Assembly (NCBI RefSeq): GCF_044324875.1
Contig: NZ_CP172185.1
DNA length: 64,000 nucleotides
Reading direction: 5' to 3' (one strand)
Origin: Escherichia coli
GTDB lineage: Bacteria > Pseudomonadota > Gammaproteobacteria > Enterobacterales > Enterobacteriaceae
Under the pieces are notes generated by a model. That model searched no databases, was not told the origin of the DNA, and saw only the letters and a program-made list of their open reading frames with translations. The position numbers and the translations under genes are program-made. Shown piece by piece: positions 6,487 to 58,023 of this stretch; the stretch's first letter is position 1, and each line of letters begins with the position of its first letter.

Positions 6487-9400
6487 TTATTTCATCGCCT
6501 CCTCGCCCTTTGCCGTATCGGCATCCACCGCGGTAATGGTCACCGTCACTGGCTTCATTTCGTACCCGCCATACGTCAGGGCGTTAAATGTAAACGTATA
6601 GACACCTGGCTTGTTGGTACTAAATGTACGCGTGATTTTTCCGCTCACGAAATGGTCATTTTTCGACGGCAGGAATTGATAATCCTTCTCCGTCACTCCT
6701 TCCGGCGTCTGAATGTCGACCCACACATTCCCCCCAACAGGGTTATTTGCCGAGAACAGGGTCACCTCCAGCTTCGCAGTCGATTTCCCATCCGCCACCA
6801 GCGATTGCACATCAGATGATGCGGCGAGCACCGCGTTTTTATCATCCGCGACGAATTTAGATTCAGCAGTTTTCGTCGATTCCTGACCGTTGGCCTGTTC
6901 CACTTTCGCCGTGAGTGTATATTTCGCTGCGACAGTGGTCGTGGCGGTGAAAATAGCCTGCCCTTGCTCATTAGTTTTCGCCGTCCCATCGGGATCCAGA
7001 GCTAAATTTGCCGGGCTGGCAGTCAGCGTCACCTCGCTATCTTTCAACAGGTTGTTATTGGCATCAGTCACCGTAACTTTATACGTCTGTTTGGCTTTGC
7101 CATCCGCCAGTGCATAGTTGCCAATCACCTCAATACCGGAGACGGTTGCGGTCGCCTTATCGGCCACAAACGTTATAGTCTGCGCATCCGAAGGCTGGTC
7201 ATTTCCTGCCGACGCCGTGATCTCATAGGTTCCGGCAGTCACGGAAACCACCTGCAACTCTGCTTTCCCCTCATCGTTGGCTTTCACCCAGACATTATCG
7301 CCAGTAAGCGGCTTGACACCTCGGGGCAGATTAAAGGTCACCAGAGTGCCTGGAACAGGGTTACCGTTTTTATCCTCAACGGTCGCCGTCAGCGTAAAGG
7401 CATCTTTGCCGTTTGCCACTTTTTGAGCAGCGGCGTCTACCTCCAGGCTCGCCTGACCGGTGCTGGCATCCGCGTTGAATTTCACCGTGACCGTCTTCTG
7501 AGAGTTTTTCACCGCGGCCTCGATCTCAAGTTCCCCGGCAACCGTTGACATCAGCTCAATGTCAGCTTTACCTGCCGTATTGGTTGTTACCGTATTCCCC
7601 GTCTTGCTGGTCACACCCTGCGGTAAAGTCAGCGTAACTTCTTGCCCCTGCAACGGGTTACCATAGCTGTCCACGACGGTCAGGGTTATCTGGTTAGCAG
7701 ACTGTCCATTTGCCAGTTGGTTATTCACCTTCACCGCCATATCACTGATCACTGCCCGGGAAGCGTCGCCTGCAACATTCAGCACCAGTGGCTGAGCAAC
7801 GGCATTTAGGCCGTTCACGCGTGGCATCACAGACAACTGACCCGCGGCAGATCCCAGCGTTAAGGTCGACACGTAGACCCCATTACCTTTCTCTGTCCAG
7901 TTTCCTGCTGAAGGACGCTCACTCCCCGTGCTGGCGGCACCGCTAAACACTGGTGCATCTGGCTTCAGCCCGGTGACCGGGTTCCCGTACGCATCCTTCA
8001 CGGTGAAGGTGAGTTCCGTCGTCGTTTTAACCGTTGGAGTCTTATTGTCCGCAACAAGCGTAGAGTTAGCTGATGACATCTCTCCAGCGATGACCGTCAA
8101 CTGCGCGGCTTCGGTGGCTGCTGGCTGGCCGTTGAAGAGAGGCATGACGCGAAGCTCGCCCGTCTTTCCGCCTGTAGTCAACGTAGCAACATAGGAACCG
8201 TCACCTTTTTCGGTCCAACTGGAAACGGTCGCCCCTTCAGAGGCGGTCCCCGTCAAACTTGCCGACAACGAAAGACCACTGATAGCGTTGCCATGTGCAT
8301 CTTTTGCAATAAGCGTCACGGTTGTGCTTTCGCCGGCTTTTACGTGATCTTCTGCGACGGAGACTTTCGACTGGTTTGAAGATAACGCATCAGCCACCAC
8401 GGTTACTTTTGCCGCATTTGCTGCCGCATCCTGTCCATTTAGCTTCGGCATAACTTCTAATTCACCCGCCGTAGAGCCGAGAGTAATCTGCGCAGTCCAC
8501 GTCCCATCACCATTATTTGTCCAGCCCGATGCCGTAGAACCTACAGCAGCGGCACCCGCTAATGACGGCGCTTCCGGCGTGAGGCTGGTCACTGGGTTGT
8601 CATAGGCATCTTTTGCCGTCCAGATTGCCGTAACTGTACCGCCAACCACCGGTTTATCAGGATTCAGTGTGATGGACGAATGTGCTGCATCAAGCGGCCC
8701 GGCAACAAACTTCAGCGTTTGTTGTAATGTGCCCAGCTGATACTGCTCGCTGAAAGCACGCACAACAACGTTTCCGGCACGGGTCGAAGAAACCGTGGCG
8801 CTGTAAACGCCTGGTTTTATTTCCGAAATGGCACCAACGGTTACACCATTAGTGTCTTGCGGAACAAATCGCAAGCGGCTGGCTTCTCCCGTCACCGGAT
8901 TACCCTCGGAGTCCACCGCAGTCAACGTCAACGTATAGGCTTGCTGACCATCAGCAACCACGTCACCTGACGGCTCGTTAGCGCTCAGGGTGGAGTTTGC
9001 CACATCCATCATCGTGGCCCGCAGTTCTGCAGTGACGGTTTTGCTCATGCCATCAACGCTAACAGTAATCGTTGCCTCACCTGACTGCGTTCCGGTAGTA
9101 AAGACAGACTGATACACCCCTGCTTCAGTTTCGGTGAACTCACCCAGTGTTGGCTTTGCCTGTGATTTAGTGGCCTTCAGGGAACGAGTCACAATATTTC
9201 CAGCCGGTTTGAAAGTTAGTTCAGTCTTGATCTGATCTTTCATGCCCGTGACTGGCTGGCCCTCGGCGTCGCGCAGAGACAGCACCAGCGGCTTTTGCTC
9301 ATTACCGTTAGCAAGCATTTGAATACGGCTCTGACCGTCAAGCGTTAACGCCGTACGATCGGCGCTCATACCAGCTCCGGTAATAACCACTTCTGTCTGC

Positions 9401-10740
9401 ACACGTTTCGAGGCATTGCCTTTGTTATCGTAGGCAACTGCTGAAATCGCATAATAATTGTCTTTGCCTGGACGGTAAGCCGGGAGCGTCACTTGCCACT
9501 GATTGCCCTGTCCCGTAATTTTTCCGCCAGCGGCCAGCAAAGACGGCGCTTCCCATTGCACATTTTTCAGACCGTGAGTTGCTTTGCTGACCACAAGCCC
9601 CAGGGAAACCGTCTGGCCGCCCTTGCCTTCAATACGCTCAGGCAGAGCAATACGAATCACTTCAGATTTGCGGTACTCAAGAACGATGTTGTTATTACGC
9701 TCAACCAGGTCATAGCGGCTGCCTGCCAGCATTCGACGCTCGCGAATACTGTCTGTATCGAGTTGTTTTTCCAGAGGTTCGCCAATCCGATAATTAACTT
9801 CCAGGCCAAAGCGAGTGTCATTCTCACCACTCTTGCCCTGCTTATGCCCAGCACTCAGGGTCAGAAGAGGCACTGGCGTGTAATTCACTTCAGCGGTAAT
9901 CGCATGTGGATCTTTCTGGCGTTTATCTTTACCAAACAGCCCGACTTCATCGCCATAATACTGTTCATACATCAGGCTTGCGCCAAGCTGCGGCCAGGCA
10001 GGTAAATAGCCCTCAGCACGAATATCCCAGCCATTCGCCGGGCGTTCCTGATAATCCTCAACATCCGGCGATTTTTTCCAGCCAGAAGCCCGGATATAAC
10101 CATTGGCGCTCAGTTTCAAATAATCACGCCAGTATTCCGCACCAACACCAATGCGGGTATGACTACGGGATAAATCATGGTCGATAAAGGTGTTCACCCC
10201 CGCCATCCAGTCATTTCCTGAAAAATGACGCCAGCCAAAACCAATATTTGACTGAGTACGATCGTCGGTACGATGTATTGCCCCCTGAGTGAACAACATA
10301 TTTGTCGGCGTATCATAAATCGGATAAAGCATTTCCAGCGAAGAGTCCTTCAGCGAGAATTCTTTATCGACATTCAGTTTGACGCGCGCAGTACCATATT
10401 TCCCGAGCCACTCCTGTATTTCCTGGTTAGCTTTAGCTGTGGCCATTCCGGTAATAAAGTTACGTGTCGCATCGCTATCTGGCTGACTGCTTAAAAATGT
10501 CCCGGCATTTGCGGCAAACGACGCGACATTTTTCTCCACATTATTATCAGCAGCTACTGTGGTATTTTCCATGCTCAAACGTGGCTGAACTGCATGCTGC
10601 GCGCGTGCTGCCATTACTGGGGTAAAGGTGACAGCGAGTGGGAAAAGAACCTGAACAGAGATATTTGCCCACGCCACGCAGCGGGCCAGAACTGAATAAC
10701 GAAATCGTGGTTGTTTATGACCTGTTTTATAACGTGACAT
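6487..10740 (-). CDS. eaeH: Intimin/invasin-family outer-membrane adhesin, full length (1417 aa)
   Basis: N-terminal signal peptide, beta-barrel region, long run of Ig-like repeats rich in TLT/VTA motifs; one uninterrupted ORF. Confidence 0.85.
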   Translation of the reverse strand: MSRYKTGHKQPRFRYSVLARCVAWANISVQVLFPLAVTFTPVMAARAQHAVQPRLSMENTTVAADNNVEKNVASFAANAGTFLSSQPDSDATRNFITGMATAKANQEIQEWLGKYGTARVKLNVDKEFSLKDSSLEMLYPIYDTPTNMLFTQGAIHRTDDRTQSNIGFGWRHFSGNDWMAGVNTFIDHDLSRSHTRIGVGAEYWRDYLKLSANGYIRASGWKKSPDVEDYQERPANGWDIRAEGYLPAWPQLGASLMYEQYYGDEVGLFGKDKRQKDPHAITAEVNYTPVPLLTLSAGHKQGKSGENDTRFGLEVNYRIGEPLEKQLDTDSIRERRMLAGSRYDLVERNNNIVLEYRKSEVIRIALPERIEGKGGQTVSLGLVVSKATHGLKNVQWEAPSLLAAGGKITGQGNQWQVTLPAYRPGKDNYYAISAVAYDNKGNASKRVQTEVVITGAGMSADRTALTLDGQSRIQMLANGNEQKPLVLSLRDAEGQPVTGMKDQIKTELTFKPAGNIVTRSLKATKSQAKPTLGEFTETEAGVYQSVFTTGTQSGEATITVSVDGMSKTVTAELRATMMDVANSTLSANEPSGDVVADGQQAYTLTLTAVDSEGNPVTGEASRLRFVPQDTNGVTVGAISEIKPGVYSATVSSTRAGNVVVRAFSEQYQLGTLQQTLKFVAGPLDAAHSSITLNPDKPVVGGTVTAIWTAKDAYDNPVTSLTPEAPSLAGAAAVGSTASGWTNNGDGTWTAQITLGSTAGELEVMPKLNGQDAAANAAKVTVVADALSSNQSKVSVAEDHVKAGESTTVTLIAKDAHGNAISGLSLSASLTGTASEGATVSSWTEKGDGSYVATLTTGGKTGELRVMPLFNGQPAATEAAQLTVIAGEMSSANSTLVADNKTPTVKTTTELTFTVKDAYGNPVTGLKPDAPVFSGAASTGSERPSAGNWTEKGNGVYVSTLTLGSAAGQLSVMPRVNGLNAVAQPLVLNVAGDASRAVISDMAVKVNNQLANGQSANQITLTVVDSYGNPLQGQEVTLTLPQGVTSKTGNTVTTNTAGKADIELMSTVAGELEIEAAVKNSQKTVTVKFNADASTGQASLEVDAAAQKVANGKDAFTLTATVEDKNGNPVPGTLVTFNLPRGVKPLTGDNVWVKANDEGKAELQVVSVTAGTYEITASAGNDQPSDAQTITFVADKATATVSGIEVIGNYALADGKAKQTYKVTVTDANNNLLKDSEVTLTASPANLALDPDGTAKTNEQGQAIFTATTTVAAKYTLTAKVEQANGQESTKTAESKFVADDKNAVLAASSDVQSLVADGKSTAKLEVTLFSANNPVGGNVWVDIQTPEGVTEKDYQFLPSKNDHFVSGKITRTFSTNKPGVYTFTFNALTYGGYEMKPVTVTITAVDADTAKGEEAMK

Positions 10741-40625: not shown

Positions 40626-40839
40626 ACGTTAACAACGACCGACTCTTCACTGTGCAAAATTGTGTCAGGTAGTCCCTCTGCGTTCAATTCCAGGGTCTGC
40701 TTTGAGCGAGAAAGAGGGGACTATCCAGCAATGGAGATCACCCAAAAGAAAAAACCACCTGACTCCCTCGACAACCTTCATCCGGGCATTTAGCCTCAAT
40801 CAACATGTTTATATCTGTCAGGTTACTTCATGATGAAAA

Positions 40840-40989
40840 CTGATCATCATCGTTGTTTTTGTTGCAATAGTAGAATACGCGTATTTATTCCTCCATCTCT
40901 ATTAATAACGGCAATAAACTGTTCACTTCACTGATATTTAAAATATGTATCCTTTTCAAGCTGTTCAGCGGCGTAAGAAAAAGTATTAA
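40840..40989 (+). pseudogene. Decayed remnant of a ykgR-like gene fused to the 3' end of an rpmJ2-like gene
   Basis: 40840..40905 encodes LIIIVVFVAIVEYAYLFLHLY* with no start codon; 40945..40989 encodes MYPFQAVQRRKKKY* (compare RpmJ2 ...[11 protein letters not shown]); flanks align with 20768..20880 and 21558..21710. Confidence 0.5.
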
Positions 40990-41306
40990 TTATGAATTCG
41001 ACGATTTAACCATTTCAGTCTGATTGGTAATCATCTATGATTAATGCTGGTCTATTGATTACGCCAGCATTAACCGCTTAGGGATGTATTCTTCCTGTCC
41101 ATATAGCCCTCGAAAAAGAGAGAAAATAAAACTGTGTCCAATATTAATTTACCACTTCAGACCGAAACATCGGTGGAATTAGCAGGACGACTGGTACAGA
41201 AGGATGGTATAGCGTCATTTGTCGGGCATTCCATTGCCATAATAATGACAATTTTGAAGCAATAGCCGTGCTTCTTGATCATGTCTTAAAAATTATACCA
41301 TGAGCC

Positions 41307-41537
41307 TTATGAGGCATCATTTTTACTGACTGGTGTTAACTTTGCTATCATATAAACTCTGTTCTTAAAAAACGCGCCCAGAATTTTATATGATTTTCCT
41401 TGTTTTGCTGCCTGTAAAGAAATTTCTTTTTCAGTGCTGTCGATGGTTGAACCGACGGCAGTAATCGTTTTGGCGACGCTACTGAAGGATATTAAAGACA
41501 GTGTAACCACAACAATTAAAGAATAGATAATATTCAT
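41307..41537 (-). CDS. DUF1471 (YhcN/BhsA-like) small periplasmic protein
   Basis: Signal peptide then ...ITAVGSTIDSTEKEISLQAAKQGKSYKIL...; AGGAG ribosome-binding site. Confidence 0.55.
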   Translation of the reverse strand: MNIIYSLIVVVTLSLISFSSVAKTITAVGSTIDSTEKEISLQAAKQGKSYKILGAFFKNRVYMIAKLTPVSKNDAS

Positions 41538-41752
41538 GCTAATTCTCCTGACAATTGAGAGGATGAGTTTAATATACAAAGGCATTAAATATGAGTCATG
41601 TTTACTCCCTGTGAAAATAACCTTACTGTAATTAAACCTTCATCTCCTTCGGGGTGAGCAATGCAAAATATAATGCATCTTGCTATGCAAAACAGTGGAT
41701 ATAAATTTTCCTCGCGACCTATTTAATAAAACGTGAATATAAAAGTTAGTCT

Positions 41753-42304
41753 TCAGTTTGCAGATGCAGTAGGTCTGATGGTAATTTCGGTTGTATCAAC
41801 GCTTTCGGGAGATTCAATAATATGCCTTACAGCACGGGCAATATCCGCAGGTTGAAGTGCAACAGAACGGTAGGCGTCCATTGACTTCATGGTTTCCACA
41901 TGGGTAATGGTTGAAGCCAGTTCACTTTCTACAACCCCAGGATTTACGCAGGTCACACGGATTTTCGAGCTTTCCTGCCGTAAGCCATCCGAAATAGCCC
42001 GTACTGCAAATTTTGATGCGCAATAGACTGCGCCTGTGGGCACAACAGAAAGGGCACCAATAGAACCAAGATTGATTATCTGACCGGAACCCTGTGCTTC
42101 CATCACCGGAAGTACAGCGCCAATTCCCCAAAGTACACCTTTGATATTCACGTCAATAGTGAGCTCCCATTCATCTTGTTTTCCTGCTGCAAGCGGTGAA
42201 AGCGGCATAACGCCCGCATTATTGATAAGAACATCAACTCGCCCCCAGCTATCCAGCGCTACTTGCACGAAATCTGCCATGGACTGTCGGTCTGTGACAT
42301 CCAA
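41753..42304 (-). pseudogene. 5'-truncated short-chain dehydrogenase/reductase gene
   Basis: Has NNAG and YxxxK (YCASKFA) motifs but no N-terminal TGxxxGxG Rossmann segment; 5' end abuts the integrase remnant. Confidence 0.55.
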
Positions 42305-42475
42305 CTTGCATTTTCAGAAATGGGAGGCTGGGAGTCTATCGAAATGGTTCGTCGATATGCTCACCTTGCACCTAATCACCTTACCGAACACGCACGGCAA
42401 ATAGACTCAGTCCTGAACCCATCGGTCCCAAATTTGTCCCAGTCAAAAAAAAAGGAAGGTACTAATTATGTGTAA
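42263..42475 (+). pseudogene. C-terminal remnant of a tyrosine integrase gene beside thrW
   Basis: ...[21 protein letters not shown]... (catalytic Tyr region); ends 15 bp from the tRNA 3' end. Confidence 0.65.
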
Positions 42476-42489
42476 CTTATTGATTTAAA

Positions 42490-42565
42490 TGGTGCCGATA
42501 ATAGGAGTCGAACCTACGACCTTCGCATTACGAATGCGCTGCTCTACCAACTGAGCTATATCGGC
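42490..42565 (-). tRNA. thrW: tRNA-Thr (anticodon CGU)
   Basis: 76-nt cloverleaf GCCGATATAGCTCAGTTGGTAGAGCAGCGCATTCGTAATGCGAAGGTCGTAGGTTCGACTCCTATTATCGGCACCA. Confidence 0.9.
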
Positions 42566-51278: not shown

Positions 51279-51893
51279 TTACACAGCGACAAAAGCCATC
51301 CCTGTAAACGTTCGTCGCGGGTTGCCACGTTCAATCTGGTGATGGAACATTCGCCGCTGCGATTTCAGCGCCGCGCTATTTTCCTGTTGCTGTTGCTCCA
51401 GCTTCCAGGCAATCAGCAATCGCGCCAGCCGTTTGTTGGCATGTTGGCTGCGCTCTGACTGAACCTTCACGCTAATCCCGGATGCCAGATGCGTGGCGCG
51501 TACCGCCGAGTCGGTTTTATTGACATGTTGACCGCCCGGCCCCGACGAACGCAGCGTCTCATAACGGATTGCATCCGATTGTTCCTGCTCATCAGCAGTA
51601 AAACGCCCAATGCCCAGAAACCAGTTTTTGCGCCCATGATGAGGCCGATACGGACTCGGACAAATCCACTGGATAGTGCCGCACCAACTTTCGCTTAATG
51701 CCCATGCGTTATCGCCATCCAGAGAAATCAGCGCTGAACGCAACGTGTCAGAGTAGCGACCCGTTTCTGTTTCCAGCACCGTTATCGCGACGTCTTGTCG
51801 GGTAGCTTCTTTAATCAACCTGTCCAGCGCCTTTTTCACTGCGAGGCAACATTCTTCCGGCCCCTGCGCTGAGGAGAGTTGTAGCAAGATCAT
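51279..51893 (-). CDS. prfH: Peptide chain release factor homolog PrfH, full length (204 aa)
   Basis: GGQ motif ([16 protein letters not shown]); ATG overlaps rtcB2 stop (ATGA). Confidence 0.85.
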
Positions 51894-53041
51894 CCTTTTT
51901 TCCCTCCACTGTTTTTGAGCGTTAGCACCGGACGCAGCCGCGCGACAGGAATAATTAAACCGGCTTGCACCAGACATTGCACCACGCTTTCAGCCGATTT
52001 ATAGGCTTGTGGCGCTTCTTCAAAGATGAGTTGTTTATCGCGACAAATTACCCGACTGCCAAGTTCAGTACGCGAGAGTTGCGTCGCCGTGCATTTCGCT
52101 GCCAGACGCCCTTTACACTCGGTGCGCCCCCATTTACGCCCTGCCCCATGCGCCAGCGAGTGGAGCGTTTTTTCGTTCGCAACAGGCTGTACAAGCCAGG
52201 AGTAATCACCGCGTGAACCGGGAATAATCACCAGACCGTTGTCATCCGGCGTGGCACCTTTACGATGCAACCAACCCTGTTGATCGCCGATTTGGCACGC
52301 GCTAACAAAGTTATGCGCCACATCCAGAACCGGACTTCCGGTGGCCTTAACTTGTTGCATTATGCGCAAAGCAATCATCTGGCGATTAATACGCGCAAAC
52401 GCTAGCACATCGTCATGTTCCGCAATATACCGTAGCGCGTCGTCACTGCCTTCAGGCAAACCATGATGCGAAAACGAGGCAATATGCCGCTGTAAAATAG
52501 ACTGCCCCAACCCCCTCGAGCCGCTATGAACCAGCAGTTGCAGATGCTGCGCATCCAGACCTGCCAGTGCAAACAGTTCAGCGTCGATGATTTCATCAAC
52601 TTGTTGCAGTTCTGCGAAGTGGTTTCCGCCACCGATAGAGCCAAGCGAGCTGCGCCACGGATGCTGTGCAAATGCTGACGGCAGGTTTTCCTCCAGCCAG
52701 CTTTCTTCAGCAACGTCATCCAAAGCTGATAATCGCTTTTCAAACTTATCGGCGTTGTATTTGCGAGCGAGAATATCTGTTTGCCATAGCGCCATGCCGC
52801 AGCCGATATCATTGCCGACCAGTGCCGGGTAAAAACGGCCTGCGGAGAAGAACGCTGCGCCAATCGGGTAGCCGCGTCCGGGATGTAAATCTGGCATCCC
52901 TACTACGCGCTGCATGTTGGGTAAATTTGCCGTGGTGTGTAATTGTTGGATCGCTAAACTCTCGATCCACAGGTCATCAGATGCGATGGTAAATACCGCA
53001 TCGGATAAGGGACGAATATATTTGCCCATAAACCATTCCAT
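51890..53041 (-). CDS. rtcB2: RtcB-family RNA ligase paralog RtcB2, full length (start may be 53029)
   Basis: RtcB motifs ([38 protein letters not shown]). Confidence 0.8.
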
Positions 53042-53219: not shown

Positions 53220-53672
53220 TTAATGTTGCGGTTTATATCGCATATAAAAATTAGTAAACCACGCTCCCCGGCATTCAACGCACTGCTGCTTAACTGTCTG
53301 AAAACCATAACGTTCAAAAAAGGGCTTTGCGGTTATGCTGGCGTCCACCGTAAGTTCGGATTCAGACTTAATCAAAGGTTTTAACAAAGCGCTGGCAACC
53401 CCACGGCGGGTGTATTCAGGGTCAACAAATAACATATCGATATAATGTTCAATGCGGGAAATAAAACCAACCGGTTGTGCATTAATGACTGCAACCCGCA
53501 CTTGTGATTTCGCGAGTTTATCTTTCCAGCGAGATTCGTCAATCTGCGCCCAGGCGGCAATTTGCTGTGGAGAATAGTGCTGACTGGCAGTCATCGTAAC
53601 CGCTCGAAGGAAAATAGCGCATAGTTGCTGAAAATCGCCAGGCTGATAGTTTCTTATATGTATGTTATTCAT
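53220..53672 (-). CDS. yafP: GNAT-family N-acetyltransferase
   Basis: 150-aa ORF; last gene of dinB operon. Confidence 0.85.
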   Translation of the reverse strand: MNNIHIRNYQPGDFQQLCAIFLRAVTMTASQHYSPQQIAAWAQIDESRWKDKLAKSQVRVAVINAQPVGFISRIEHYIDMLFVDPEYTRRGVASALLKPLIKSESELTVDASITAKPFFERYGFQTVKQQCVECRGAWFTNFYMRYKPQH

Positions 53673-53684
53673 AATATAAATTCA

Positions 53685-54080
53685 AAAACGCATGCGAAAC
53701 GCTTCTGCCATTTTCCCAATTTTATGCATTTGGTTGTTATCTCGAGCCAGTTTATGAGGTTCAGGTTTCAGAATGGCAATGAGCAACCATGCTTGCTCAT
53801 CAAACGCACCCTGACAATATACCAAATGCGCTTCGTCATTCGTTCTGCTGAATTGGCGCAACTGTGGCGGAAATGGATTATTCTAATTTGCCAGATGAAT
53901 ATGAGCAACTCGCTCAAATTTGATTAATGGCCAGGTAAACGAGTCGTCGTAGAGTGCATCGCGACCAAATATATCTGGCAAAACACCGTCACGCTTATAG
54001 GAAATAAAATCCGCCGTTAACGCTTCAAGTTCCTCTGCTGTAAGTTGCAGGCGAATGAGTTTTGTTTTGAATACCCGCAT
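53685..54080 (-). pseudogene. yafO: YafO toxin gene with in-frame amber codon at codon 66 (65 + 66 sense codons either side of TAG)
   Basis: MRVFKTKLIRLQ...IHLAN then TAG at 53883..53885, then same-frame NNPFPPQL...AEAFRMRF*; total 132 codons. Confidence 0.7.
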
Positions 54081-54082
54081 CC

Positions 54083-54376
54083 TTATTCCTTAAAGTCATT
54101 GAAATCATCATCCGTCATATCATTAAGATATTTTTCAGCTCGGCGTGTAATTTCCTCTAATCTTGCAGCACTTGGACGGAAGCGCGCCTTTATAGGCTTT
54201 TTCTCCTCTTGTTCAGTAAGCATGTCCATTAACGCTTCGAATGCGCTGGCACTTAAGAGATATCCTGCGGGGCGATTATTAGAAAGAACCGCAACTGGTT
54301 GATCAATAAAGTATTTAGCTGGGTTTTTACGTAACTCAGTGATATTGACCGATTTTTCCGCAAGAATTCGATGCAT
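54083..54376 (-). CDS. yafN: Antitoxin YafN
   Basis: 97-aa Phd/YefM-type ORF directly upstream of yafO. Confidence 0.85.
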   Translation of the reverse strand: MHRILAEKSVNITELRKNPAKYFIDQPVAVLSNNRPAGYLLSASAFEALMDMLTEQEEKKPIKARFRPSAARLEEITRRAEKYLNDMTDDDFNDFKE

Positions 54377-54427: not shown

Positions 54428-55483
54428 TCATAATCCCAGCACCAGTTGTCTTTCCATTTGAGGGTCAAGCAACGTCACATGCAGCCCCACCAGTCGCACA
54501 CCGCGCCCGCCGCGGCGTTCATCCCAGGTTTTACGCGCGGTGGCGATTAGATCAGCTTTATTCAGCCGTGGCCAGACGTGCTCCTGAGTGGTTTGCTGGA
54601 AATCGTCGAACTTTAATTTCACTCCCTGACGGGCAATCAGTAAATCAGGTTTTACCTTTGCCAGACGGCGTTCAAGTTCCGGGTACAGCCGCTCGATAAT
54701 CGCTTCACATTCAGACCAGTGATGAATATCTTCCGCCATCGTGCGTTCCACGCCGACGGATTTTCGCAACCGTTCGCTGTTAACGTCGCGCTCGTCAATC
54801 CCCTGACTACGCTCCCACAAAATGCGGCCAAATTTGCCAAAACGTTTGAGCAGAGTCACCAGATCACACTTTTGCACATCACCGCAGGTCCGCAGCCCCA
54901 TCGCTTCCAGTTTTGCCGCCGAGACTTTGCCGACGCCAGGAATTTTTGCCAGCGGTAAGGTTTGCAGAAATGCCGGAACTTCTGCCGGAGTAATCACAAA
55001 CTGACCGTTGGGTTTATTCATGTCGGAAGCGATTTTAGCGAGAAACTTTACCGGCGCAACGCCCGCAGACGCCGTCAGTTGCAGCTCGTTGAAGATTGTC
55101 TGGCGGATTTCCTGGGCGATGAGGGTCGCAGAACCGTGGCAATGCACACTATCGGTGACGTCGAGATAGGCTTCATCCAGTGATAACGGTTCAATGCGCG
55201 AGGTATAGCGCGAGAAAATTTCGCGGATATGATTTGAGGCTTCTTTGTAGGCGTCAAAGCGCCCTGGAAGCAGCGTGAGATGTGGGCAAAATTTGAGCGC
55301 CATCCCTGTCGGCATAGCGCTACGTACGCCAAATTTACGCGCGGGATAATTGGCGGTGCTGATCACCCCCCGACGTTCGCGGCTGCCGCCAATAGCAATA
55401 GGGATATCGCGCAGGGCAGGATTGTCGCGCATCTCCACCGCTGCGAAAAAGCAGTCCATATCCACATGAATGATTTTACGCAT
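54428..55483 (-). CDS. dinB: DNA polymerase IV
   Basis: 351-aa Y-family polymerase ([17 protein letters not shown]). Confidence 0.95.
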
Positions 55484-55497
55484 TGCTCACCTCTCAA

Positions 55498-55517
55498 CAC
55501 TGGTAAAGTATACAGTG
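55498..55517. promoter_or_regulatory. LexA box upstream of dinB
   Basis: cactggtaaagtatacagtg = CTGT-N8-ACAG palindrome 15 bp before the dinB start. Confidence 0.75.
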
Positions 55518-55553
55518 ATTTCAGAGTTTGAGAAATGCATAAAGATTCAGCAT

Positions 55554-56300
55554 TTAACGCGTTCGCTGCGAAAGCACCTGCTGCTTATCCAGCTTTTGCA
55601 CCAGCGGTTGCACCACTTTATCCCCATGCTGACCAAAGTATTGATACAGCGTATCGGACGCACTTTTGGTCAGCACCATAATCTCAATGCGCCGGTTGCC
55701 CGCGCTTTGCGGATTTTTGGCATCCAGCAGCATCTGGTCCGCCATTGCACTTACCTGCATCACTTTATCTTCCGGCATTCCGGCCTCTTCCAGCACCCGA
55801 CGAGCTGAAAGCGCGCGATCGCCCGAAAGGTTCCAGTTGTTGTAGATATTGTTTTTGTAGGCCATCGCATCGGTATGCCCGGTGATGATGATCTTATTGT
55901 CGAGCGAATCAAAAACCGGTGCTAACTCCACCAGCAAAGTTTTAAAGAACGGCATAATCTGCGCGCTGCCGCGTTCAAACATATTGCGGTTCTGGTCATC
56001 TTTAATCAGCACGCGCAGTCCCTGGGGAACAATCTCCATCTCCAGATTCGCTTCCATATGCGCATCACGGGCAATGGTGTTGATACTGGTTGCCAGCTCG
56101 CCAAGCTCAGTAGCGGATTTCTTCTTCAGCAGCGCCGTTTTCTCGTTGACGTCATGCGCTTTTTTCTCCGTCTCTTCCGGCACCGCCACGGTGGCAGGTT
56201 TTGGCGGATGAGACGGTCTGATTTTATTTAACGGCGACAGCCCGCCACCGTTAAAAATCGACTGCCCGTGCAGCGCGGCGATAATGCTTTCACGCTCGGA
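55554..56300 (-). pseudogene. lafU: 3' remnant of a lateral-flagellar MotB-like gene (OmpA-like domain only; junction approximate)
   Basis: ...NWNLSGDRALSARRVLEEAGMP... peptidoglycan-binding domain; no N-terminal transmembrane segment; upstream part of ORF is antisense to the fhiA remnant. Confidence 0.65.
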
Positions 56301-56309
56301 TTTACTGAC

Positions 56310-58023
56310 GCTGTTGACAATCAACTTTATCGTCGTCACCAAAGGGGCCGAGCGTATTTCCGAGGTTTCTGCCCGCTTTACCTTAGACGCGATGCCTGGC
56401 AAACAGATGGCGATTGACGCCGATCTTAACGCCGGGTTGATCAACCAGGCGCAGGCGCAAACCCGGCGCAAAGATGTTGCCAGCGAGGCCGATTTCTACG
56501 GCGCGATGGACGGGGCATCGAAGTTTGTGCGCGGGGATGCCATCGCCGGGATGATGATTCTGGCGATCAACCTGATCGGCGGCGTCTGTATCGGGATCTT
56601 CAAATACAACCTGAGCGCCGACGCCGCCTTCCAGCAGTATGTACTGATGACCATCGGCGACGGGCTGGTGGCGCAGATCCCTTCTCTGCTGCTCTCCACC
56701 GCAGCGGCGATTATCGTCACCCGCGTCAGCGACAACGGCGATATCGCCCATGATGTGCGCCACCAGCTGCTGGCAAGCCCGTCGGTGCTCTACACCGCCA
56801 CCGGGATCATGTTTGTGCTGGCGGTTGTGCCGGGGATGCCGCATCTGCCGTTTTTGCTGTTCAGCGCCCTGCTTGGTTTTACCGGCTGGCGGATGAGCAA
56901 ACGCCCGCAGGCGGCGGAGGCGGAAGAGAAAAGCCTCGAAACACTGACCCGAACCATCACCGAAACCAGCGAGCAACAGGTCAGTTGGGAAACTATTCCG
57001 CTGATCGAGCCCATCAGCTTAAGCCTCGGCTACAAGCTGGTGGCGCTGGTGGACAAAGCACAGGGTAACCCGCTCACCCAGCGGATTCGCGGCGTGCGGC
57101 AGGTGATTTCTGACGGCAACGGCGTGCTGCTGCCGGAGATCCGCATTCGGGAAAACTTCCGCCTCAAGCCCAGCCAGTACGCCATTTTCATCAATGGCAT
57201 TAAGGCTGATGAAGCGGATATTCCGGCGGATAAACTGATGGCCCTGCCCTCCAGCGAAACCTACGGCGAGATTGACGGCGTGCTGGGGAACGACCCGGCG
57301 TACGGGATGCCGGTGACCTGGATCCAGCCCGCGCAGAAAGCGAAGGCGCTGAATATGGGGTATCAGGTGATCGACAGCGCCAGCGTGATTGCCACCCATG
57401 TGAACAAGATTGTCCGCAGCTATATTCCTGATTTGTTTAACTATGATGACATCACGCAGTTGCATAACCGTTTGTCGTCGATGGCACCGCGCCTGGCGGA
57501 AGATTTGAGCGCGGCGCTCAATTACAGCCAATTGCTGAAAGTGTACCGGGCGCTGCTGACCGAAGGCGTTTCCCTGCGCGATATTGTCACCATCGCCACC
57601 GTGCTGGTCGCCAGTAGCACAGTGACCAAAGATCATATCCTGCTGGCGGCCGATGTGCGCCTGGCATTGCGGCGCAGCATTACCCATCCGTTCGTTCGCA
57701 AGCAGGAGCTGACGGTGTATACGCTGAATAATGAGCTGGAAAATCTGCTCACCAACGTGGTGAATCAGGCGCAACAGGGCGGGAAAGTGATGCTCGACAG
57801 CGTGCCGGTTGACCCGAATATGCTCAACCAGTTCCAGAGTACGATGCCGCAGGTGAAGGAGCAGATGAAAGCAGCGGGGAAAGCCCCTGTGCTGCTGGTG
57901 CCGCCGCAGCTGCGTCCTTTGCTGGCGCGTTATGCAAGGTTGTTTGCGCCGGGTCTGCATGTGCTGTCGTATAACGAAGTGCCGGATGAGCTGGAGTTGA
58001 AGATTATGGGGGCGTTGAGTTGA
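56310..58023 (+). pseudogene. fhiA: 5'-truncated FlhA-family flagellar export gate gene (about 130 N-terminal codons missing; junction approximate)
   Basis: FlhA motifs from ...VTKGAERISEVSARFTLDAMPGKQMAIDADL to C-terminus; ORF begins without transmembrane segments 1-3. Confidence 0.65.

Follow-up and report, generated by a model that had tools for sequence, protein, structure and literature searches.

[quoted passage not shown]

The yafO locus and its neighbors

In the window, by which we mean the whole 64,000-nucleotide stretch of Escherichia coli DNA analyzed here, the operon dinB-yafN-yafO-yafP lies on the minus strand (Table 1). Translation of that strand places the yafO start codon ATG at 54080-54078, codons 1 to 65 at 54080-53886, codons 67 to 132 at 53882-53685, and the terminal TGA at 53684-53682, with a TAG at the position of codon 66. 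The conceptual product is therefore 65 amino acids, a stop, and a further 66 amino acids, or 132 codons counting the TAG, and the frame is equal in length to the 132-amino-acid YafO of K-12. An earlier note on this DNA had described the same frame, with 65 sense codons, the TAG, 66 sense codons, and a TGA, and translation reproduces it exactly. It had also called the surrounding genes yafN, dinB, and yafP intact, and all three proved to be full length, with YafN and YafP well above the respective NCBIfam cutoffs.

Table 1. Coordinates of the operon genes and of the parts of the interrupted yafO frame (window positions)
Feature	Coordinates	Strand	Description
dinB	54428-55483	-	351-aa ORF, intact; annotation of homologous loci agrees
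yafN, Phd/YefM-type antitoxin	54083-54376	-	97 aa, intact; NF007300, 195.6 bits (cutoff 99)
yafO pseudogene, type II toxin YafO homologue	53682..54080	-	Conceptual 132 codons plus TGA
yafO translatable ORF, residues 1-65 plus TAG	53883..54080	-	From the list of open reading frames
TAG amber, yafO codon 66	53883..53885	-	Mutated base is window position 53885
yafO untranslated remnant, residues 67-132	53685..53882	-	Contains an in-frame TTG ORF
TTG ORF, 59 aa, inside the yafO remnant, same frame	53682-53861	-	Separate protein according to gene callers
yafP, GNAT acetyltransferase, last gene of the operon	53220-53672	-	150 aa, intact; NF007338, 323.5 bits (cutoff 146)

The identity of the interrupted gene is clear from its profile matches and its context. 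With Glu restored at position 66, the product matches the YafO model NF007377 from end to end with 245.9 bits, above the curated cutoff of 153, and Pfam PF13957 covers residues 27 to 130 with an E value of 1.2e-39, which places it in the YafO family. The gene yafN is found directly upstream and ends 2 nt before the yafO ATG. The uninterrupted ORF of about 131 to 134 amino acids that family members share is lacking in the window, where the TAG stands at codon 66. The locus accordingly combines an intact antitoxin gene, yafN, with an interrupted toxin gene, yafO, and is very probably not a functional type II toxin-antitoxin module.

The operon of K-12 has the same gene order, spacing, and locus as that of the window, and its yafP likewise starts 9 nt past the yafO stop. 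The window yafO is identical to K-12 yafO at 394 of 399 nt, and the five differences comprise three synonymous changes, D19E, and E66*. The decisive difference is codon 66, which is GAG in K-12 and TAG in the window, where only residues 1 to 65 can be made. Elsewhere in the operon, dinB differs from the K-12 gene by 40 synonymous and 2 nonsynonymous codon differences, and YafN differs from its K-12 counterpart at 2 residues. In the window, the yafP ATG lies 9 nt past the yafO TGA with no obvious Shine-Dalgarno sequence before it, and a yafO stop 200 nt earlier could mean weaker translational coupling or Rho-dependent polarity on yafP.

The name given to the antitoxin deserves a remark. The NCBI annotation pipeline and NF007300 call YafN a "type I toxin-antitoxin system antitoxin," whereas YafN, being a protein, belongs with the type II antitoxins (Phd/YefM-like). 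The label looks like a misnaming, copied by now into thousands of genomes.

Consequence of the stop for the toxin

We aligned 24 full-length YafO homologues of 131 to 134 amino acids with 53 to 98% identity. All 24 have a sense residue at position 66, and the position itself is variable, with Glu or Val in E. coli and Ala, Asp, Gly, Ser, Thr, or His elsewhere. The earlier note had considered that reference YafO proteins might end naturally at residue 65, and the alignment speaks against this, since the homologues are 131 to 134 amino acids long and conserved through the C terminus. Sixteen of the 30 invariant columns lie past residue 66 (Q76, T80, H85, L86, Y88, C89, L99, L100, P106, H109, A112, N115, M118, A125, F128, and R129). 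The N-terminal fragment retains the other 14 invariant residues, the AHIHL motif among them.

The 65-amino-acid product holds less than half of the YafO domain as delimited by PF13957 (residues 27 to 130). Each half of the gene taken alone falls below the NF007377 cutoff of 153, with 113 bits for the 65-amino-acid product and 119 bits for the other half. An AlphaFold2 model of full-length YafO built from the 24-sequence alignment had a mean pLDDT of 46.5, too poor to place residue 66, and a PDB sequence search returned no relative of solved structure. With half of the YafO domain cut off by the stop, and with it 16 of the 30 invariant residues, the YafO toxin of the window is almost certainly null, a judgment that we base on conservation and domain coverage.

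Ancestral state of codon 66

The ancestral codon, which the earlier note had left to be named by alignment with other E. coli, comes out as GAG (Glu) from two sources. One is K-12. The other is a 45.8-kb metagenome scaffold (L015) whose yafO is identical to that of the window at 398 of 399 nt, the sole difference being G for T at yafO nt 196, which corresponds to window position 53885. Because this scaffold differs from the window yafO only at nt 196, the lesion can be read with confidence from the sequences as a single transversion of GAG (Glu66) to TAG, G to T on the coding strand and C to A on the plus strand.

In the protein collection, the exact window background occurs with Glu66 on 69 contigs and with Val66 on at least 1,000; no Leu66 protein on this background was found there. 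Among complete genomes, the window yafO haplotype was found with neither GAG nor TTG at codon 66. The sense alleles nearest to it there have GTG (Val), as in NRG857C (with one other difference), LR-28, and ST648. All seven sense yafO alleles that we read have GAG or GTG, and codon 66 of yafO is thus tri-allelic in E. coli, with TAG, GAG, and GTG.

A 61-mer spanning the codon gives a rough view of how these alleles are distributed. In an evenly spaced sample of 60 of 2,841 records, about 63% differ from the window at two sites and about 30% at one site, with TAG accounting for about 5% (140 records); these percentages are estimates from the 60-record sample, and the placement of the differences at codon 66 was checked in few records. 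Strain 536, fetched from the two-site class, has GTG, and K-12, which belongs to the one-site class, has GAG. A two-step or tandem GT-to-TA origin of the TAG, suggested by the GTG neighbors, was also considered and was dropped in view of the exact GAG haplotype in the metagenome scaffold and the contigs carrying the Glu66 protein.

Distribution of the TAG allele

The part of yafO covered by the 61-mer is present in 2,841 records from 5,426 complete E. coli genomes. The exact TAG-bearing 61-mer is found in 140 of these 2,841, and the remaining 2,701 differ within the 61-mer. At a threshold of 99% identity, a 1.25-kb operon segment and an 8-kb segment each also match 140 records. The three sets agree in number, their overlap not having been compared record by record, and this agreement suggests that the TAG allele belongs to one haplotype clade. 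E. coli 042 and an ST69-labeled strain belong to this clade. At least 60 complete genomes match the window yafO at every one of its 399 nt, and public contigs that encode the exact 65-amino-acid product number at least 1,000 across NCBI, ENA, and Logan. The exact 59-amino-acid TTG ORF occurs on 992 public contigs, where it is named hypothetical or partial YafO. The interrupted gene is already known in the sense that public annotation flags it; RefSeq lists the identical allele as a yafO pseudogene with an "internal stop" in 042, the ST69 strain, and M7424.

These counts bear on whether the TAG is a sequencing or assembly error hiding a sense codon. A one-base difference from K-12 in a frame that is otherwise intact is just what a base-call error resembles. 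However, the identical allele is present in 140 independently assembled complete genomes, the 65-residue product recurs on contigs from all three public sources, and RefSeq recorded the internal stop independently in each of the three genomes examined. We regard an error as having a negligible chance of being the explanation, because the exact 61-mer recurs in the 140 records and the fragment ORFs are found on many contigs.

The distribution also dates the mutation in relative terms. The TAG clade today occurs widely in humans, poultry, wildlife, and wastewater, and the mutation is older than the diversification of this clade. No further decay is seen downstream of the stop, which fits a young mutation and is, taken alone, also compatible with continued constraint. 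The mutation is young when measured against the rate of substitution, since no second lesion has followed the stop and at least 60 complete genomes share the gene without a single difference. The earlier note had spoken of recent toxin inactivation. The single nonsense codon, the GAG of K-12, the GAG haplotype in the metagenome, and the lack of downstream decay agree with this, but the allele is not private to one strain and is fixed in a 140-genome clade, and "recent" holds only relatively.

Amber suppression and read-through

As an alternative to inactivation, the earlier note had proposed a dependence on amber suppression, for which we found no support: there is no suppressor tRNA in the window, glnX and glnV of 042 are wild type, and TAG is an ordinary stop in this DNA. 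The broader form of this idea is that yafO is still functional, with a suppressor tRNA or leaky read-through of UAG-A giving active full-length YafO at a reduced dose. Since many residues are tolerated at position 66, an inserted residue would probably be acceptable; in addition, the downstream yafO frame is fully open and undecayed, and the base after the TAG is A. UAG followed by A is a comparatively leaky, weaker termination context in E. coli, and trace read-through of yafO may occur.

The tRNA genes, however, offer little to sustain suppression. The sole tRNA in the 64-kb window is Thr(CGU), and no tRNA with a CUA anticodon was found within the window. In 042, which has the same yafO allele, both tRNA-Gln(CUG) genes of the supE locus (glnX and glnV) have the wild-type anticodon CUG; the survey took in the window and this locus, with tyrT, serU, and leuX outside it. 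The exact supE allele is present in 155 records, and the 60 of them that were listed are all K-12 laboratory derivatives and do not overlap with the TAG-yafO genomes listed. Within the window, TAG ends 3 of 50 long ORFs, which is normal usage. As for read-through, the basal toxin dose would be far below that of the intact, cotranscribed YafN and would be swamped by it. The in-frame stop is not conserved among yafO homologues but confined to one clade, and programmed read-through is disfavored because the stop sits in that clade while every other yafO allele examined has a sense codon. Continued toxin activity by either route is on this evidence highly improbable.

Possible functions of the truncated products

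A different possibility is that YafO(1-65) or the split products have a function and that the allele is under selection, with the N-terminal fragment acting as a YafN-binding, nontoxic corepressor or decoy, or with the two fragments reassembling. The allele is indeed fixed in a successful clade (140 complete genomes and at least 1,000 contigs), the N-terminal fragment keeps its 14 invariant residues with the AHIHL motif, and the downstream in-frame TTG ORF of 59 amino acids is a candidate for a reinitiated C-terminal fragment. However, the stretch before the TTG, AATAATCCATTTCCGCCACAGTTG, contains nothing resembling a Shine-Dalgarno sequence, and either piece is without half of the conserved YafO domain. 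Hitchhiking alone predicts fixation in a clonal lineage, and the loss of yafO elsewhere in E. coli by IS insertion, frameshift, or absence argues for dispensability, not for a new function. We therefore consider it most unlikely that the fragments were retained for a function of their own. A more elaborate version, in which E66* was selected in ST69/042 either through UAG-A read-through giving sub-toxic YafO under SOS or through YafO(1-65)-YafN tuning of the yafN promoter or yafP, also seems very unlikely to us.

Interpretation

The reading that we prefer is that yafO in the window is very probably a lineage-specific nonsense pseudogene, inherited within the 042/ST69 clade and representing ordinary toxin-antitoxin decay. 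Release factor 1 would end yafO translation after Asn65, and the product would be a 65-residue fragment without the C-terminal half of the YafO domain, so that the ribosome-dependent mRNA-cleaving toxin would no longer be made. The gene yafN would be left as an orphan antitoxin gene, presumably with its autorepression preserved, and apart from yafO the SOS-regulated dinB-yafN-(yafO)-yafP operon would be kept intact. E66* would then mark the usual way in which a dispensable chromosomal toxin-antitoxin module begins to decay.

When intact, YafO cleaves mRNA in a translation- or ribosome-dependent manner and is neutralized by YafN (PMC2814082; PMC7781912), and K-12 YafO in particular is a proven growth-arresting, translation-dependent mRNA interferase (PMC2814082). 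YafN represses a promoter just upstream of yafN, and the dinB promoter gives SOS control (PMC2814082; PMC7781912).

Dispensability of yafNO and comparable systems

Of the 5,426 complete E. coli genomes, 2,583 are without yafO, and in these dinB sits next to yafP. A review describes the dinB-yafP pair as an undisturbed operon in strains without yafNO and reports that deletion of yafNO leaves SOS induction, adaptive mutation, and survival unaffected (PMC7167474). In yafNO-less lineages with the dinB-yafP bicistron, such as UTI89, the outcome is the same as in the window, with no YafO and with dinB and yafP retained, but both yafN and yafO are absent there, whereas the window keeps yafN and the whole yafO sequence.

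Where yafO is present, it is seldom grossly truncated in complete genomes, with coverage below 80% in only 11 of 2,849 records. The protein collection holds several kinds of disrupted E. coli YafO (P0007, P0009, P0045, and P0031-P0038). One, with 269 member sequences, runs into an IS1 end after residue 104, and others have insertion junctions after residues 97 and 51. Several frameshift products share a common out-of-frame tail, and some of these may be assembly errors. E66* is the commonest yafO null allele seen here in complete genomes, in a tally that leaves frameshifts inside full-length matches uncounted.

The parE-1 pseudogene of CFT073 and orphan higA genes offer parallels (PMC7232551), in that a dead toxin stands beside a retained antitoxin and, as with yafNO, the loci occur patchily among E. 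coli lineages. The window yafO differs from these in having one clean nonsense codon with no erosion and in lying inside an SOS operon, not in an islet.

Relation to the literature and use of the allele

A full-text literature search found no explicit description of the yafO E66* allele. A survey from 2023, covering the toxin-antitoxin systems of 19 sequence types, reported the YafO-domain "partner" clusters 76P and 77P as novel antitoxin markers found only in ST69, and its supplement file 5 gives both as partners of the YafO hit 16H and as carrying the YafO_toxin domain (PMC10790755). We infer that 76P and 77P are probably the two ORFs of the split yafO pseudogene and not antitoxins. The 65-amino-acid and 59-amino-acid "YafO" ORFs produced by gene callers may be mistaken for new toxin or antitoxin genes.

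The allele itself carries little biological weight, being one more case of a dispensable chromosomal toxin-antitoxin module decaying toxin first. It is of use as a clean single-base marker of the clade that includes ST69 and 042, and in studies of SOS- or stress-induced YafO the presence of the toxin should not be assumed in TAG lineages.

Haplotype and other features of the window

In 042, ST69, and related strains, yafO is 100% identical to that of the window, and yafN, yafP, rtcB, and prfH flank it in the same way. From 50682 to about 55030, the window shows two differences from 042, YafN A54T and a synonymous change in yafP. The A54T change (window position 54217, codon 54) is private to the window, neither K-12 nor 042 having it, and is a nonsynonymous change in an antitoxin that apparently has no toxin left to neutralize. 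The mismatches with 042 are otherwise concentrated upstream, lafU (4.55%) accounting for 35 of the 45 and the 5' part of dinB for a further six. Divergence from 042 jumps at about 55030-56325 (lafU plus 5' dinB), compared with 2 mismatches over the 4.3 kb downstream, and this looks like a recombination breakpoint inside dinB. Because the mismatches concentrate in lafU and 5' dinB, the window would represent the 042/ST69 haplotype across yafN-yafO-yafP-rtcB-prfH with a recombinant segment upstream, as far as can be judged by comparison of the sequences. Queries of 24 kb and 8 kb from the window met no identical record among the complete genomes, the best match reaching 99.4%.

Upstream of the operon, 55554-58023 holds a remnant of the lateral flagellar (Flag-2) cluster, in which lafU (NF005273, 473 bits) and an FlhA-like ORF run in opposite directions and overlap. 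The FlhA-like ORF is N-terminally truncated, covering model positions 114 to 677 of 678. The arrangement of this remnant is as in M7424, whereas 042 keeps motA-lafU.

The tRNA-Thr(CGU) gene lies at 42490-42565, and beside it about 1.85 kb is unaligned in the closest genomes (region 40626-42565, with matches beginning at 42472). This unaligned segment carries a short-chain dehydrogenase ORF without its N terminus at 41753-42304 (model positions 61 to 223 of 278). On the minus strand at 6487-10740, there is an intact ORF of 1,417 amino acids with an N-terminal domain of the intimin/invasin-type inverse autotransporters (NF040978, E = 3e-193). It falls below every curated cutoff and is thus an unnamed member of the family.

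Directly downstream of yafP, at 51279-53041 on the minus strand, rtcB (a 383-amino-acid ORF; NF007153, 637.7 bits) and prfH (TIGR03072, 328.2 bits) are intact and overlap each other. In K-12, rtcB and prfH are both annotated as truncated pseudogenes, whereas the window copies are intact.
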